This document shows, piece by piece, positions 9,715 through 36,946 of a stretch of DNA of 64,000 bases. Source of the stretch: Ignavibacteria bacterium. Its GTDB lineage: Bacteria; Elusimicrobiota; Endomicrobiia; PHAN01. The position numbers and the translations under genes were made by a program. The stretch's first letter is position 1; each line of letters begins with the position of its first letter. Where the stretch lies: the NCBI GenBank assembly GCA_041694835.1, contig JBGFRZ010000032.1, forward strand, positions 57-64,056, written 5' to 3'. Below the pieces are notes generated by a model that saw only the letters and a list, made by a program, of their open reading frames with translations, was not told the origin of the DNA and searched no databases.

Positions 9715-10563
9715 TTATCTTTGAAATTTTTTAATCGCCGCGGGTATGTTTTCAACTATATCAGAAGCTATCATGGAAACTTCGCCCATGACACGCTTCG
9801 ACACATCGCCTGAAAGTCCGTGAAGATAGACGGTCGTCTTTGCGGCTTCATAAAGTGGCGATATCTGATTTATAACGGCGCCCATCATACCTGAAAGGAC
9901 GTCTCCGGAGCCAGCTGTGGCCATGCCTGGATTTCCCGTTTTGTTGATGTATATTCTTTTGTCATCCGCGACGATAGTCCGAAAGCCCTTGAGGACGCAA
10001 ACGGCATTATATCTCTCCGATATCGATTTGGCCGCGAACTTTCTGTTTTTTTCTATGACATCAATGGTTAAATTCAGAAGACGCGATGCTTCTTTCGGAT
10101 GGGGCGTGAGTATTAAGTTTTTACAGGATTTTTTAACGACAACGGACGATTCGGATAAAACGTTTATGCCGTCGGCGTCGATTACAGTCGGGCAGTCGAG
10201 ATTTAATATCACTTCATTTAAAATATTTTTTACGGAGTCGGTTTTCGTCAAGCCCGGGCCGAAAACAACCGAGTCGATTTTCACGTCTCCGATAAATCTT
10301 GAGATTTCATCTGCGGATTTTTTTGAGAAAACCCCCGATTCGGAAGCGAAAGAGCGAACGATAATCTCAGGTCGCACCCTTGAACAAACGACCGCATATA
10401 TCTCCGCCGGCACCCCGAGAGTGACAACGCCGGCGCCCATTCTGACAGCGCCAGCAGCAGCTAAAACTGCGGCGCCGGAATAAATCCAGGAACCTGCTAA
10501 TATAAAAACGTGTCCGTAATCGCTTTTATGTGTATCGTTTTTCCTCGGCGGAAATACTTTCAT
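9715..10563 (-). CDS. nnrD: ADP-dependent (S)-NAD(P)H-hydrate dehydratase (YjeF C-terminal domain)
   Basis: SDYGHVFILAGS...GAAVLAA...GAGVVTLG motifs typical of the carbohydrate-kinase-like Nnr dehydratase domain. Confidence 0.8.
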   Translation of the reverse strand: MKVFPPRKNDTHKSDYGHVFILAGSWIYSGAAVLAAAGAVRMGAGVVTLGVPAEIYAVVCSRVRPEIIVRSFASESGVFSKKSADEISRFIGDVKIDSVVFGPGLTKTDSVKNILNEVILNLDCPTVIDADGINVLSESSVVVKKSCKNLILTPHPKEASRLLNLTIDVIEKNRKFAAKSISERYNAVCVLKGFRTIVADDKRIYINKTGNPGMATAGSGDVLSGMMGAVINQISPLYEAAKTTVYLHGLSGDVSKRVMGEVSMIASDIVENIPAAIKKFQR

Positions 10564-10892
10564 TTCAAAACACAGAACGCGACGGCGTATTCTTTTACAT
10601 GCGAAAGGGAAATTAAAAAATTATCCGCGGCGATATTTTTGATATAAACCGTTGGACGCCCGTCGGCAGAGTTTCTTATTTCTATATCCTTATGCGATAT
10701 GCTTTTTTTTTCGCATGCTTTCCAGACAGATTCTTTCGCTGCAAACCTTACAGCAAAGTGCTGAGAAAAGTTTTTCTTTGAAAGGCAGTATTTTATTTCC
10801 TTCGCGGTAAAAATCTTTTCAAGAAATTTTTTGCTTTTGATGAGTTTTTCTATTCTTTTTACATCAACTATATCTACACCCACTCCTTTCAT
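10560..10892 (-). CDS. acpS: Holo-[acyl-carrier-protein] synthase
   Basis: N-terminal GVGVDIVDVKRIEK motif; 110 aa. Confidence 0.8.
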   Translation of the reverse strand: MKGVGVDIVDVKRIEKLIKSKKFLEKIFTAKEIKYCLSKKNFSQHFAVRFAAKESVWKACEKKSISHKDIEIRNSADGRPTVYIKNIAADNFLISLSHVKEYAVAFCVLK

Positions 10893-10893
10893 T

Positions 10894-12723
10894 TCATTCC
10901 ACCGTTACGGATTTTGCAAGATTTCGAGGCTGGTCGACGTCGTTTCCCCTCAAAATAGCGCAGTAATAAGCGAAAAGCTGCAATGGAACCACATTGACAA
11001 GTGGAGATATAAACTCATCGACATCGGGAACTGTTATCACAAAATCTGATTTTTGTTCAATGATTCGCTCGCCGACGTTTGCCAAAGATATCACCACCCC
11101 TAGCCGCGCTTTCACCTCTTCTATGTTCGAGAGAATCTTTTCATAAACGGAGCTTTTTGTCGCAATAACTACCACCGGCATATTTTCGTCTATTAAAGCA
11201 ATTGGACCGTGCTTCATTTCTCCAGCCGGATAGCCCTCGGCGTGAATATAAGAAATTTCCTTGAGCTTTAAAGCGCCCTCAAGAGCTATTGGATAGTTGA
11301 AGTTCCTGCCGAGATAAAGAAAATCCTTCGAGTGAAAAAATTTTTTCGCTATCTCCAAAATCTTTTTGCTCCCTTTCAGAACTTCGTTTATTTTCATCGG
11401 AACGTCCCATAGAGAAAATATCATGTTTTTTACCGATTCCTTCGAGACGGAGTTTTTCTTTATCGCCCAATCAAGCGTTAAAAGATAAAGGGCCGTAAGC
11501 TGCCCGATGAATGCCTTTGTAGAAGCCACGCCGACCTCCGGTCCACAGTGTGTATAAAGAGTACTGTCAGATTCGCGAGACGCCGTTGAACCCACAACGT
11601 TAGATATGACAAGGGTGTAGGAACCGCTCGATTTTGCGAGTCTCAAAGATGCCAACGTGTCGGCGGTCTCTCCCGACTGGGTTATCGCCATCACCATGGT
11701 CTTCGAATTTAAAATCGGGTTTCTGTACCTGAACTCCGAGGCTATATCCACTTCGCATGGAATTTTAGCGTAGTTTTCAAAAAGGAATTTTCCGACGAGG
11801 CCGGCGTGGTAAGAAGTCCCGCAGGCGACTATGTATATTTTCTGAATGCTTTTTACGAGTCCTTCGGGTATTTTGAGCTCCTCATCGAAAGAGAGCCTCG
11901 ACTGCTCGGGATATATCCGCCCCCTAAAAGTATCCTGAACGGCCTGAGGTTGTTCGAATATCTCCTTCAGCATGAAATGCTTATATCCCCCTTTCTCCGC
12001 CTGAATCGGATCCCATCTTACAATATGAACCATGCGATTTACGATTTTTCTTTTGTTGTAAACTGTTACGCTGTTTTTCCTGATATCGGCGACATCGCCG
12101 TCTTCAAGATATATAACTTTTTTCGTGTAAGGTAGTATCGCGGGGATATCTGACGCGATATAGTTTTCACTTTCGCCCACACCAACTATTAAAGGGGCGT
12201 CCTTTCTTGCGGCTATCATCCTTGTCTTGTCAAGTTTTGAAATAACCCCCACGGCATACGCTCCGACTATTTCATCGATTGTGCAAAAAACCGCCTCAAG
12301 AAGATCGCCTTTGAAGTTTTTTTCGACGGTATGGACTATCACCTCCGTATCGGTCTCTGAATCGAATTTATGATTGGATTTTACAAGCTGATTTTTCAGC
12401 TCCACGTAGTTTTCTATTATACCATTGTGGACAAGGACTATATCATCATTGCATGATGTGTGAGGATGAGCATTTTCCTCCGAAGGCTTGCCGTGCGTCG
12501 CCCATCTTGTGTGACCTATACCGACGGAGCCTTTAATTGGCGAGGCTTTGATGGCAAGTTCTAACTGAGCGATTTTCCCGGTGCCCCTGATCCGTCGTAT
12601 CTCGTCGTTTTCAATCACGGCAATCCCGGCAGAATCGTAGCCCCTGTATTCAAGCCTTTTTAATCCGTCGATGATAACGGGGACGGAGTCGCTGTCGCCT
12701 ATATATCCGACTATTCCGCACAT
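10894..12723 (-). CDS. glmS: Glutamine--fructose-6-phosphate aminotransferase
   Basis: N-terminal MCGIVGYIG (Cys2 nucleophile), two SIS domains, 609 aa. Confidence 0.95.
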   Translation of the reverse strand: MCGIVGYIGDSDSVPVIIDGLKRLEYRGYDSAGIAVIENDEIRRIRGTGKIAQLELAIKASPIKGSVGIGHTRWATHGKPSEENAHPHTSCNDDIVLVHNGIIENYVELKNQLVKSNHKFDSETDTEVIVHTVEKNFKGDLLEAVFCTIDEIVGAYAVGVISKLDKTRMIAARKDAPLIVGVGESENYIASDIPAILPYTKKVIYLEDGDVADIRKNSVTVYNKRKIVNRMVHIVRWDPIQAEKGGYKHFMLKEIFEQPQAVQDTFRGRIYPEQSRLSFDEELKIPEGLVKSIQKIYIVACGTSYHAGLVGKFLFENYAKIPCEVDIASEFRYRNPILNSKTMVMAITQSGETADTLASLRLAKSSGSYTLVISNVVGSTASRESDSTLYTHCGPEVGVASTKAFIGQLTALYLLTLDWAIKKNSVSKESVKNMIFSLWDVPMKINEVLKGSKKILEIAKKFFHSKDFLYLGRNFNYPIALEGALKLKEISYIHAEGYPAGEMKHGPIALIDENMPVVVIATKSSVYEKILSNIEEVKARLGVVISLANVGERIIEQKSDFVITVPDVDEFISPLVNVVPLQLFAYYCAILRGNDVDQPRNLAKSVTVE

Positions 12724-12751
12724 ATTAGTGATTAGTGATAGTGGTTAGTTA

Positions 12752-13023
12752 GTGTCCTGTCCCGCAAATACCTTTACATTTGAAGGGTAAGATTTGAGAC
12801 GGATTCAAGAAACGACGAGTGCGGTGTAGTCTCTGGACTACATAAACGAGGAGTGACGCAGAAGCCGTCCAAATAATACCCTTCCCGAAGGGCTGATGTC
12901 TTTTGTTCATCGTCGGCGTTGCTCGTCGCTCACATACCGCAGAGGGTATGCTTCGCTCCTCGCGCCTTGACGCTGAAACAAAATACGAACAGCGAATGTA
13001 AAGGTATTTGCGGGACAGGACAC
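12752..13023. repeat. 272-bp element bounded by perfect 29-bp inverted repeats (GTGTCCTGTCCCGCAAATACCTTTACATT / AATGTAAAGGTATTTGCGGGACAGGACAC) filling the glmS 5' leader; candidate structured leader RNA or MITE
   Basis: Exact reverse-complement termini at 12752-12780 and 12995-13023; GC-rich interior with several local hairpins (CCCTTCGGGAAGGG, GTAGTCCAGAGACTAC). Confidence 0.5.
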
Positions 13024-13048
13024 TACATCTTATCACTCAATTAACTTA

Positions 13049-13771
13049 TCAGCCTGCTTTGTTTATTTTTTCTATCATTTCTCTGACGGCGTTATCCAGT
13101 CCGACAAACACCGCTCTCGCTATTATCGAAAAACCGATGTTCAACTCGTTCATACCGGGAATTTTAACCACAGAAGTTACATTATCGTAATTTAAACCGT
13201 GGCCGGCGTTCAAAATAACTCCGTTTTTTAAGGCGATTGCCGCTGCTTTTTTTAAAGTCCCGAGATTTTTTTCACATTCCTCTTTTGTAGGGCTATTCGC
13301 ATAAATACCCGTATGAAGCTCGACACAGTCGGCGCCTACTTTTTTCGATGACACTATCTGCGATTCTTCCGCGTTTACAAACATGCTCACTCTGATGCCG
13401 GCCGATTTCAACCTCGCGACGACGCTTCTGAGATAATCTGCGTTGCCCGCAACATCCAGACCCCCCTCGGTTGTAAGTTCGCTTCTTTTTTCCGGGACGA
13501 GACAGACATCGTGGGGCATGAGTTCTAAAGCTATTTTTATGATATCTTCCGCCGCCGCCATTTCAAGGTTTAACTTTGTATTTATGTTTTTCTTTAAATC
13601 ATAGACATCAGCGTCCTGTATGTGCCGCCTGTCCTCTCTCAAATGGACTGTTATCCCGTCGGCGCCCGCTTTTTCGCAAACGAGAGCGGCCTCAAGGAGA
13701 TTTGGAAATCCCTCTTTCCTCGCCTGCCTTAGGGTTGCGATGTGATCTATGTTTACACCAAGTTTTACCAT
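13049..13771 (-). CDS. pdxJ: Pyridoxine 5'-phosphate synthase
   Basis: LGVNIDHIATLRQAR...GADGITVHLREDRRHI motifs. Confidence 0.9.
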   Translation of the reverse strand: MVKLGVNIDHIATLRQARKEGFPNLLEAALVCEKAGADGITVHLREDRRHIQDADVYDLKKNINTKLNLEMAAAEDIIKIALELMPHDVCLVPEKRSELTTEGGLDVAGNADYLRSVVARLKSAGIRVSMFVNAEESQIVSSKKVGADCVELHTGIYANSPTKEECEKNLGTLKKAAAIALKNGVILNAGHGLNYDNVTSVVKIPGMNELNIGFSIIARAVFVGLDNAVREMIEKINKAG

Positions 13772-13819: not shown

Positions 13820-15181
13820 TTATAATGTACTTCCCGCCGAAGCCGATTCGGACAGAAAAATCTTTTTCAACTCCTCGGCCGTTTTTCTGATTTTTTTTTC
13901 GCTTTTACCTTCTATCATTATCCTCAAAAGCGGTTCGGTGCCGGAATATCTTACAAATATCCTTCCATCTTCGGCCAAAACATTTTCTTCCTCTTTTATC
14001 TTTTTCATAAATCCGGGCAGGTTCTCAATCGGAATTTTTTTCGGCACGGCGACGTTCAACATAACCTGCGGATACATTTTTATAGATCCGGCGAAACGCG
14101 AGAACCTCTTTCCAGTTTCTTTCGTGGCGGACAAAATACGCAATGCCGTGAGAATGCCATCGCCCGTCTTCGCGTATTTTCTGAAAATTATATGTCCCGA
14201 CTGTTCCCCTCCTATTAGCGCTCCGTTTTTTTTCATCCCTTCCAAAACATACTTGTCGCCGACGTCTGTCGTCAGAACATTTATTTTTTCATCTTTCATT
14301 TTTTTCATAAAACCCAGGTTTGTCATAACCGTAACGACGACGTTGTTTGGATTCGGCTCTTTTTTGTTTTTCAGGTAAATAGCATATCCTCCTATTATCT
14401 GGTCGCCGTTGATATAATTTCCGCGCTCGTCGCAAAAAACAGCGCGGTCGCCGTCGCCGTCAAAAGCAATTCCACAAAAAGCGCCCTGCCTTACAGTCGC
14501 GTTTTGAATCAGAGCGGGATAAAGCGAGCCGCAGTTTCTGTTTATATTTTTCCCGTCAGGTTTTGTGTTTAAGGCCAGCACCTCGGCGCCAAGATCGGCA
14601 AAGACGCCCGGGGCGATGGCAAAGGTTGAGCCATTAGCACAGTCCAATACTATTTTCATGCCTGAGAGGTCATCCTTCACCGTTTGCTTCAAAAACGAGA
14701 TGTATTCGTTTTGAAGGCTGTAATTCACGGCATTATTCGCGCTGTTTTTCTTTTTTTGCAACGGCACTTTGGAATTGAAGTACTCTTTTTCTACTTCACT
14801 TTCGATTTTTGGGGGAAGTTTTTCGCCATATTTGGTGAAGAATTTTATGCCGTTGTCCTGCCAGGGATTGTGAGAGGCCGAGATTACGACCCCGGCTAAA
14901 TATTTGTTTTTCTCAACGAGATGCGACACCGCGGGAGTGGGGATTATACCGACGTTTACAACGATAATGCCGGATTGGCGCAGCCCCGAAGAAAGTTTTT
15001 CGAATATAATGCCAGACGAGCATCTTGTATCCTGACCTATGATCGCTTTTGGTTCGACCCCTTTGTATTTTTTTCTTAAAACTATACCCGCGGCATATCC
15101 AAGTTTCACTATGTTTCTATCTATAAGAAATCCACAACCATATCTGCCTCGGATGCCATCGGTTCCAAATAAGGTCTTCAT
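13820..15181 (-). CDS. glmM: Phosphoglucosamine mutase
   Basis: GTDGIRG N-terminus, active-site SASHNP, GGEQSGH. Confidence 0.9.
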   Translation of the reverse strand: MKTLFGTDGIRGRYGCGFLIDRNIVKLGYAAGIVLRKKYKGVEPKAIIGQDTRCSSGIIFEKLSSGLRQSGIIVVNVGIIPTPAVSHLVEKNKYLAGVVISASHNPWQDNGIKFFTKYGEKLPPKIESEVEKEYFNSKVPLQKKKNSANNAVNYSLQNEYISFLKQTVKDDLSGMKIVLDCANGSTFAIAPGVFADLGAEVLALNTKPDGKNINRNCGSLYPALIQNATVRQGAFCGIAFDGDGDRAVFCDERGNYINGDQIIGGYAIYLKNKKEPNPNNVVVTVMTNLGFMKKMKDEKINVLTTDVGDKYVLEGMKKNGALIGGEQSGHIIFRKYAKTGDGILTALRILSATKETGKRFSRFAGSIKMYPQVMLNVAVPKKIPIENLPGFMKKIKEEENVLAEDGRIFVRYSGTEPLLRIMIEGKSEKKIRKTAEELKKIFLSESASAGSTL

Positions 15182-15275
15182 CCTGCCCTCAGATAGAGCC
15201 AGATTAGAATGGCGAAAATGACCGCTATTATTTTTAATTCAATGTTTTCCTTGAGTTTTTCAATTAGCTTCTTCA

Positions 15276-16067
15276 TCATTTAACATTCCTGCGCTCGGCG
15301 AATCCGTCGCCGCCTTGAGGGGTAAACATCTTGAGCATATGCTTTTCAGTTTCATCGATATTTATGTTGTAATGAAGCTGACCCCTTCTTGCAAGAGAAA
15401 CCTCTCCGGTTTCCTCCGAGACGACGATAATTACTGCGTCGGATATCTCGCTTAAGCCTAAAGCGGCTCTATGTCTTGTCGCACCGTGCGGTATTTCCTT
15501 TTCTATGCTCAAAGGGAGTATGCATCCGGCGGAGAGCAACTTGGTGTTGCTTACTATCACAGCGCCGTCGTGGAGCGGCGATTTGTCCACAAATATAGAA
15601 AGTATAAGCTCTTTCTTTACGTTCGCGTTCAAAACCGTTCCTGCATCTATGTAATTCTTAAGTCCCGTTTTCCTCTCGAAAACTATAATGGCGCCGGTTT
15701 TTGTTTTGGACAACTCCCTTATAGCATCAAATGTCTCCTTTAAGAACTCGACGTTGTCAGCCATAAAGAACTTTCCTATCGGTTGTGTCCCGAGGAAAGC
15801 AAGAACCGACCTTATTTCCTGCTGGAATATGATGGCGGCAAGTATTATGCCGGCAAGCCAAAATTGATTCAGTATCCAGTTGAATGTCTTTAAACCAAGT
15901 AATTTGGATACTATGGTGAGGAAAAAAATAAGGATTATCCCGAGGAATATCTGTATCGTCCGAGTGCCCCTGAAAAGCAAAAGGAGCCTGAAGATAATGT
16001 AACTGATTATCGCTATATCTAAAACATGAACAAGGAAATTTTTCCAGACGTCGACTAAAATATCCAT
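15276..16067 (-). CDS. cdaA: Diadenylate cyclase (c-di-AMP synthase, membrane-anchored DAC domain)
   Basis: N-terminal TM helices; DAC-domain motifs GAIIV...LHDGAVIV...GTRHRAALGLSE...DAVIIVVSEETG. Confidence 0.85.
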   Translation of the reverse strand: MDILVDVWKNFLVHVLDIAIISYIIFRLLLLFRGTRTIQIFLGIILIFFLTIVSKLLGLKTFNWILNQFWLAGIILAAIIFQQEIRSVLAFLGTQPIGKFFMADNVEFLKETFDAIRELSKTKTGAIIVFERKTGLKNYIDAGTVLNANVKKELILSIFVDKSPLHDGAVIVSNTKLLSAGCILPLSIEKEIPHGATRHRAALGLSEISDAVIIVVSEETGEVSLARRGQLHYNINIDETEKHMLKMFTPQGGDGFAERRNVK

Positions 16068-21079: not shown

Positions 21080-21151
21080 TTACCAGGGGTGGGGATTGAA
21101 CCCACGACCTACGGCTTATGAGTCCGCTGCTCTACCACTGAGCTACCCTGG
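21080..21151 (-). tRNA. tRNA with anticodon CAT (elongator Met or lysidine-modified Ile2)
   Basis: Minus-strand sequence GCCAGGGTAGCTCAGTGGTAGAGCAGCGGACTCATAAGCCGTAGGTCGTGGGTTCAATCCCCACCCCTGGTA folds as a cloverleaf (D arm GCTC/GAGC, anticodon loop CTCATAA, T loop GGTTCAATCC). Confidence 0.75.
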
Positions 21152-21200
21152 CATTAAAAGGTGCGGGGCAAGTCCGCTGCTCTACCACTGAGCTACCCTG
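21152..21200 (-). pseudogene. tRNA 5'-half fragment (GCAGGGTAGCTCAGTGGTAGAGCAGCGGACT) plus an inverted-repeat spacer upstream of the intact tRNA
   Basis: Near-identical to positions 1-33 of the adjacent tRNA and ends inside the anticodon loop. Confidence 0.45.
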
Positions 21201-36581: not shown

Positions 36582-36758
36582 TGTTTCGGTAGCCCAGCCG
36601 GCATCCGTTCAAACCCGAACCCCGTCGCCTTTCAACGACGGATTGTCCCATAACGCGGGATTTAGCCCTGTTGGCTTTGCGTCCCCCGGTTTCCCGGCAT
36701 CCCGACACAAAATCGGAACGTTCCCATATGACCAGCAGGGAAGGTTTGCCTTTGTCGC

Positions 36759-36946
36759 TATAATGAGATTATTGAAAAACCCATCTTTTTCACTTAAAGG
36801 GCAGTTTCTTAACGGTTAAAAGTTTCAATCAGACCGCAAAACTCCTCGCTTTGCTCGTCAGACATTGCGGTCTAAACGATTTCAACTTTTAACCTGAAAC
36901 TGCCAAATCGTTCAAAAGATTAAGGTTTTTCAACGAGCTCATAATA
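36759..36946. mobile_element. Roughly 190-bp imperfect-palindrome element, copy 2
   Basis: Differs from copy 1 at only a few positions; terminal repeats TATAATGAGATTATTGAAAAACC ... GGTTTTTCAACGAGCTCATAATA. Confidence 0.65.

Follow-up and report, generated by a model that had tools for sequence, protein, structure and literature searches.

A 272-bp element between pdxJ and glmS, very probably a MITE mobilised by an IS630-family transposase

The hallmark of IS630/Tc1-mariner transposition is the duplication of a 2-bp TA target, which often lies in a CTAG context. Mobilisation by the insertion sequence (IS) IS630-Spn1 was proposed for the RUP element of Streptococcus pneumoniae from the similarity of the terminal inverted repeats (TIRs) and the TA target (PMC2229807). 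RUP itself is 107 bp long, has short TIRs (9 contiguous bp) and is found in pneumococci only (PMC2229807). The Correia/NEMIS elements of Neisseria are MITEs with a conserved core, TIRs of 24-26 bp and TA flanks. Their transcription together with neighbouring genes is frequent, and the hairpin formed by their TIRs is cut by RNase III and can alter the expression of adjacent genes (PMC2229807, PMC2649163, PMC10969869). [quoted passage not shown] (2008, cited in PMC10969869), and its size variants measure 178-235 bp.

In the 64,000-nucleotide stretch of DNA analysed in this study (hereafter the window), the spacer between pdxJ and glmS is filled by an element of 272 bp (12752-13023) with perfect 29-nt TIRs, as the first-pass annotation had claimed. 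We conclude that this element is very probably a non-autonomous MITE that was mobilised in trans by an IS630-family (Tc1/mariner-type DDE) transposase. A MITE with a 29-bp TIR had been offered earlier as the alternative to a regulatory RNA, and it is now strongly supported by the presence of the terminus at 41 other loci, the TA flanks and the empty site in relatives. glmS is an essential gene known for riboswitch control, and the main value of the present analysis is one of correction: in all likelihood, the structured 272-bp "leader" before glmS is the footprint of a transposon and no new regulatory RNA.

Elements of this kind are well known, and the specific family is unmatched in the sources searched. 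Like RUP, it is a small, non-coding, multi-copy element with IS630-like TIRs and insertion at TA (PMC2229807). Compared by description, the family found here differs from RUP in its length of 159-349 bp, its conserved terminus of 13-21 nt, its two-box hairpin core and its occurrence in several phyla. The Correia elements may, by analogy, serve as a model for how the window element could act at the RNA level. They differ in host range, and the review that describes them names no parent IS (PMC2229807); they also have a documented IHF site and promoters generated by their ends, neither of which is evident in the window element. With Chunjie the element shares its position inside an operon, between genes, although Chunjie is a different element known from a single genome and the intactness of the pdxJ-glmS operon in the window is presumed.

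The locus, the termini and the target site

The genes around the element are those claimed earlier. Both pdxJ (13049-13771), the gene upstream of the interrupted spacer, and glmS (10894-12723), the gene downstream of it, flank the element, and glmM (13820-15181), cdaA (15276-16067) and acpS (10560-10892) lie nearby, all on the minus strand. All five assignments have strong Pfam support, and glmS encodes GATase_6/7 and SIS domains. The pdxJ-glmS spacer of 325 nt is composed of 23 nt, TA, the 272-nt element, TA and 26 nt. Its outer parts are native spacer of the minus strand: 23 nt next to pdxJ (13026-13048) and 26 nt next to glmS (12724-12749). The latter is a CACTAAT-like 7-nt tandem in gene sense, and it aligns with a ...ACTAATCACCATCCAC... 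stretch in the spacer of a relative. A "direct-repeat-like" stretch had been noted at this position; the repeat is genuine (a 7-nt tandem, ATTAGTG x 3.9, 12724-12749), and it belongs to the native spacer, outside the element.

Arm 1 of the TIR (GTGTCCTGTCCCGCAAATACCTTTACATT) occupies 12752-12780 on the plus strand, and arm 2, its exact reverse complement, occupies 12995-13023 on the minus strand. The repeat search returned arms of 31 nt (12750-12780 and 12995-13025) that are 100% complementary and separated by 214 nt, each being the 29-nt arm plus the flanking TA of its side. In the 64-kb window the 29-mer has exactly two occurrences, compared to 0 expected from 100 shuffles. Sequence inspection places the TA target-site duplication at 12750-12751 on the glmS-proximal side and at 13024-13025 on the pdxJ-proximal side. 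The perfect arms and the intact TA duplication suggest that the insertion is fairly recent. Identity with sequences elsewhere is graded along arm 1: its first 21 nt (GTGTCCTGTCCCGCAAATACC) are identical at 41 loci elsewhere, and its first 13 nt (GTGTCCTGTCCCG) are identical to both ends of a complete IS (L048:118-1277).

The element has no transposase coding capacity, as expected of a MITE. Earlier it had been called GC-rich, which holds only mildly, since the G+C content is 49% for the element and 51% for its interior, compared to 44% for the window. The features of a MITE were all found, i.e., terminal repeats, a flanking duplication, small non-coding size, dispersed copies elsewhere and an empty orthologous site, as were those of the IS630 type, i.e., a 2-bp TA duplication and termini matching an IS that encodes an IS630-family transposase. 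Three observations within the window count against this assignment: the insertion target is GTAA, where CTAG would be the commoner context, tblastn found no match to an IS630 transposase anywhere in the 64 kb, and neither the 29-mer count nor the covariance model found a further copy of the element or its core there.

In the mechanism that we propose, an IS630-type transposase supplied in trans would recognise the terminal repeats (core GTGTCCTGTCCCG), excise the element and paste it into a TA, which would be duplicated on insertion. The landing site would have been the TA in an ancestrally ~51-nt spacer (...GATG-TA-ACTAAC...) of the conserved cdaA-glmM-pdxJ-glmS-acpS operon. The element would now be a passenger, probably co-transcribed with pdxJ and glmS, and its insertion would be tolerated because glmS would still be expressed by read-through.

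An open frame of 95 aa (12749-13036, minus strand) with a GTG start spans the whole element, and its stop codon is a TAA formed by the TA duplication. This frame has no Pfam match and was taken to be open by chance.

Core modules and a related insertion sequence

The canonical form of the family is ~159 bp long and consists of a TIR, a long imperfect hairpin and, at position 56, a core. The layout of the core is GCGTTGC, ~10 nt, a hairpin, ~10 nt and CGCGCCTTG. In the window, the canonical core module was located at 12884-13002 on the plus strand by covariance model R1 (87.4 bits, a match by construction), and within it are the GCGTTGC box (12916-12922), the hairpin CATACC-GCAGAG-GGTATG (12933-12950) and the CGCGCCTTG box (12961-12969). 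The three internal hairpins named in the first-pass annotation do occur in the sequence. A second, diverged and inverted core module with a central hairpin GTAGTC-TCTG-GACTAC (12828-12843) was found at 12773-12891 on the minus strand (34.9 bits, E ~1.6e-6), a stretch that is absent from the training alignment of covariance model R1. This module aligns to the core only as the reverse complement, with a score of 54, whereas shuffles averaged 30.4 (sd 7.4) and reached 51 at most. As judged from this comparison, the window copy is a composite in which two family cores lie head-to-head within one pair of terminal repeats. Core modules side by side were also noticed at L031 (1-103 and 150-263) and L043 (1-100 and 148-261), which indicates adjacent or nested insertions at those loci.

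In the alignment of 11 distinct cores (A1), the GTTGC and CGCCT boxes are invariant, and double changes are found in 22 of the 28 predicted pairs. The central and outer stems differ between lineages yet remain paired. Outside its training set, the covariance model also found the core at L002, L039, L006, L007 and L010 and as second copies at L031 and L043. Selection on an RNA or DNA hairpin could account for the covariation, and so, equally, could concerted evolution of a DNA palindrome.

A complete IS of 1160 bp was found at L048:118-1277, in DNA around relatives of pieces of locus L033. Its ends read cTA|GTGTCCTGTCCCG...CGGGACAGGACAC|TAg or, in a longer reading, cTA|GTGTCCTGTCCCGTTAGTTTCTGGCATT...CAGCGGGACAGGACAC|TAg, and they form a perfect 16-nt inverted repeat when the CTA is included. 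Two open reading frames are present, one with an HTH domain (190-474) and one with a DDE_3 domain (480-1280); together they cover positions 2-299 of the NCBIfam profile NF033545 (IS630 family transposase), and the second scores 191 bits against this profile, for which the cutoff is 100. The IS shares with the window element the same 13-nt core GTGTCCTGTCCCG and the same TA duplication, which in the IS lies in a CTAG context. Since the 13-nt ends are identical in the two, the window element is, as far as its termini tell, non-autonomous and related to an IS630-family IS. It differs from the L048 IS in having no transposase remnant and in an interior that is the family-specific hairpin core and not IS-derived. 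That the similarity between the IS and the window element is confined to the 13-nt terminal core counts against the MITE assignment.

The exact 21-nt terminus is tied to a transposase only via the decayed copy L033, which likewise counts against that assignment. At L033 the terminus is followed ~70 nt inward by a decayed gene that starts with MRTGRPKAELLPSDEERSQLQSFARSR, ends with ...HPKPFVWPQPADEILASIERFGLR and is interrupted by an IS3 fragment. The encoded transposase has an N-terminus (MRTGRPKAELLPSDEERSQLQSFARSRS) that shares 25 of 28 residues with its counterpart in L048. Database relatives of the L033 pieces are annotated as "IS630 family transposase, partial" and have PF13358 or transposase-type HTH domains. 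The short transposase remnants of L033 alone gave no score against Pfam or NCBIfam, and the family assignment of L033 is drawn from these relatives and from L048.

We also noticed that the L048 transposase is split over two open reading frames in different frames (190-1280); a pseudogene or programmed frameshifting could explain this split. The second frame ends with a TAG stop codon (1278-1280), which is made of the flanking target TA and the next base, and the frame crosses the right terminal repeat.

Distribution of the family and the empty site in relatives

A scan for the 21-nt terminus GTGTCCTGTCCCGCAAATACC returned 22 loci from the GTDB representatives, which comprise a single genome of each bacterial species, and a further 19 from metagenomes. 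Several loci come from a Lysobacterales MAG (6), an Aquisalimonas MAG (5), Proteobacteria ZJ1.bin49 (3) and Gammaproteobacteria SMAG_U14393 (2), and one locus each was found in Ideonella, Casimicrobiaceae, Pseudomonadales, a delta-proteobacterial MAG, Nitrospirota, Ignavibacteria and Dehalococcoidales. The family is thus unusually widespread, with members in Gamma- and Betaproteobacteria, Nitrospirota, Ignavibacteria, Dehalococcoidales, a delta-proteobacterial MAG and an Elusimicrobiota MAG.

Most of these loci have a second, slightly diverged arm in inverted orientation 140-350 nt away. This arm, with 0-5 mismatches, sets the limits of 26 distinct complete elements outside the window, all of them small (159-349 bp). 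When the L048 IS is added to these, TA is present on both sides of 16 of the 27 elements and on at least one side of 26. The exact 21-nt termini are preceded by TA at 29 of the 41 loci and by CTA at 25. None of the 41 loci elsewhere has glmS, pdxJ or glmM near the terminus. The terminus was not found in viral contigs, blastn of the element gave no match in the plasmid and E. coli collections, Rfam at gathering score returned nothing relevant for 15 related loci, and the terminal sequence, in both orientations, retrieved from the literature only unrelated eukaryotic primer matches. The family is therefore widespread and apparently unnamed, being unmatched in Rfam, in the plasmid, E. coli and viral collections and in the searchable literature. 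Cataloguing it may prevent false riboswitch calls.

The family cores elsewhere have a G+C content of 55-78%, compared to 49-51% for the element and 44% for the host window. Because the element is richer in G+C than the window and the family cores elsewhere are richer still, horizontal acquisition of the element from higher-GC bacteria is hinted at.

A second subfamily of ~300-350 bp was recognised at L016:2909-3206, L021:3163-3479, L028-L030 and L035. Its terminus, GTGTCCTGTCCCGCAAATACCTT(T)ACAGTTC, is the closest to the 29-nt arm of the window element; its interior is different, without the GCGTTGC...CGCCTTG core, and its second arm is diverged. L016 and L021, which have the ...ACCTT(T)ACAG terminus, were considered as full-length parents and rejected, as both are non-autonomous elements of ~300-320 bp with no transposase, a diverged second arm and a different interior. 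Many family copies lie at contig ends (L006-L008, L010, L027, L034 and L042); repeats break assemblies, and copies at contig ends are expected. In the Ideonella MAG, a family member of 269 bp (L004:637-905) lies ~30 nt from a 6S RNA gene (L004:936-1113; RF00013, 46.6 bits).

By PdxJ homology the window belongs to Elusimicrobiota and is Endomicrobiia-like. Its closest syntenic relatives are Elusimicrobiota with PdxJ proteins of 73-74% identity. Their gene order is cdaA-(33-aa ORF)-glmM-pdxJ-glmS (L023, L024 and L025), followed in L023 by acpS-nnrD. The element is absent from the orthologous pdxJ-glmS position in all three, the spacers of which measure only 11 nt (L023) and 54 nt (L024 and L025). 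Removal of the element and one TA from the window spacer leaves 51 nt, TAAGTTAATTGAGTGATAAGATG-TA-ACTAACCACTATCACTAATCACTAAT. This rebuilt spacer has 35 columns identical with the 54-nt spacer of L024, a score equalled by 1 of 1000 shuffles, in a comparison that rests on distant relatives (~73% PdxJ identity) and not on the same species.

The 33-aa ORF called between cdaA and glmM in the relatives lies at L023:3549-3650, L024:296-397 and L025:428-529, and the corresponding gap in the window is 15182-15275. The position between cdaA and glmM is occupied in Firmicutes by cdaR.

Alternative explanations and the possible effect on glmS

The first-pass annotation had favoured a novel cis-regulatory leader RNA specific to glmS, that is, a conserved substitute for the riboswitch or ribozyme that would sense amino-sugar status. 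We regard such an RNA as highly improbable. In its favour are the position directly upstream of glmS, the very stable predicted fold of the element (-136.8 kcal/mol, z = -7.9), in which a 31-bp helix closes the structure, and the missing glmS ribozyme. The last of these was stated correctly, as no Rfam match was obtained at E<=10 in 12400-13400, and at gathering score Rfam returned for the whole window only a tRNA and a c-di-GMP-I riboswitch, both elsewhere. With the glmS ribozyme (RF00234) the element has in common only its position upstream of glmS, and it gives no covariance-model match even at E<=10. A strong fold, moreover, is what any palindromic element bounded by TIRs gives, and the matching IS630 termini, together with the TA duplication, fully explain the anatomy of the element. 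The regulatory-RNA reading runs against both observations that had been named beforehand as speaking against it, because the same family occurs at 41 unrelated loci with none near glmS and because the glmS leader is not conserved, the element being missing from the 11-nt or 54-nt spacers of the closest relatives. An assembly or binning artefact, by which a repeat from a higher-GC organism was joined into the MAG contig, would be in keeping with the G+C content of the element (49-51%, against 44% for the window) and with the family members elsewhere, for which the main sources are high-GC Proteobacteria and the core modules have 55-78% G+C. This is barely credible, however, since the exact junctions TA|TIR...TIR|TA include a target-site duplication, which would not arise from the joining of unrelated fragments; the flanks also rejoin into a spacer that matches that of a relative, and the genes on either side are syntenic with those of relatives.

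A different kind of proposal, which takes up the RNase III-processed helix suggested in the first-pass annotation, is that the MITE has a real, Correia-like effect on glmS. The helix formed by the terminal repeats in the pdxJ-glmS transcript would be cut by RNase III, or it would stabilise or block the mRNA, with the result that glmS would be uncoupled from pdxJ. This proposal overlays the MITE explanation and does not compete with it, and we consider it rather unlikely. In its favour, both the MFE fold and the centroid fold of the transcript in gene sense predict the perfect 31-bp helix, which by analogy would be a plausible substrate of RNase III, and processing by RNase III at the TIR hairpin of Correia elements is documented in Neisseria (PMC2229807, PMC2649163, PMC10969869). 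The element is also presumably part of a polycistronic pdxJ-glmS mRNA, because the spacers of the relatives are only 11-54 nt, and the distance of 11 nt in one of them implies co-transcription. Against such an effect, promoter-like sites (2 compared to 1.0 expected) and terminator-like sites (1 compared to 0.5 expected) in the element are not above chance, and the insertion is not conserved in relatives and shows no sign of selection for a regulatory role. The single terminator-like hairpin is weak (12893-12878, minus strand). With such matches at chance level, read-through from the operon promoter is the simplest route to glmS expression. No RNase III signature was found in the 64-kb window, a result that is uninformative for a stretch of 64 kb.

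Should glmS be affected through RNase III cleavage, altered mRNA stability or uncoupling from pdxJ, this would be incidental to the insertion and would not reflect a conserved regulatory design. As a MITE in an essential operon, the insertion provides a natural experiment on what a 31-bp dsRNA helix in a polycistronic mRNA does to the gene downstream. The most far-reaching proposal combines an undescribed cross-phylum MITE family, the core of which has a function of its own, with an insertion that created an RNase III-dependent uncoupling of glmS from pdxJ; we hold this combination to be quite improbable. The candidate functions of the core, with its GTTGC and GCGCCTTG boxes and covarying hairpin, would include, for example, that of a structured RNA or of a site bound by the transposase or by a host protein. 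If true, the combination would mean that amino-sugar synthesis has been rewired recently and in a lineage-specific way, in a phylum without a glmS ribozyme at this locus.

The two RNAs that Rfam called in the window lie at some distance from the element. One is a tRNA-Met (CAT) at 21080-21153 on the minus strand, the sole tRNA of the window. The other, the sole cis-regulatory RNA called by Rfam in the window, is a c-di-GMP-I riboswitch aptamer (RF01051) at 36585-36760 on the minus strand, with 39.5 bits against a gathering score of 35; its match spans 176 nt for a model of 87 positions and probably holds a large insertion.
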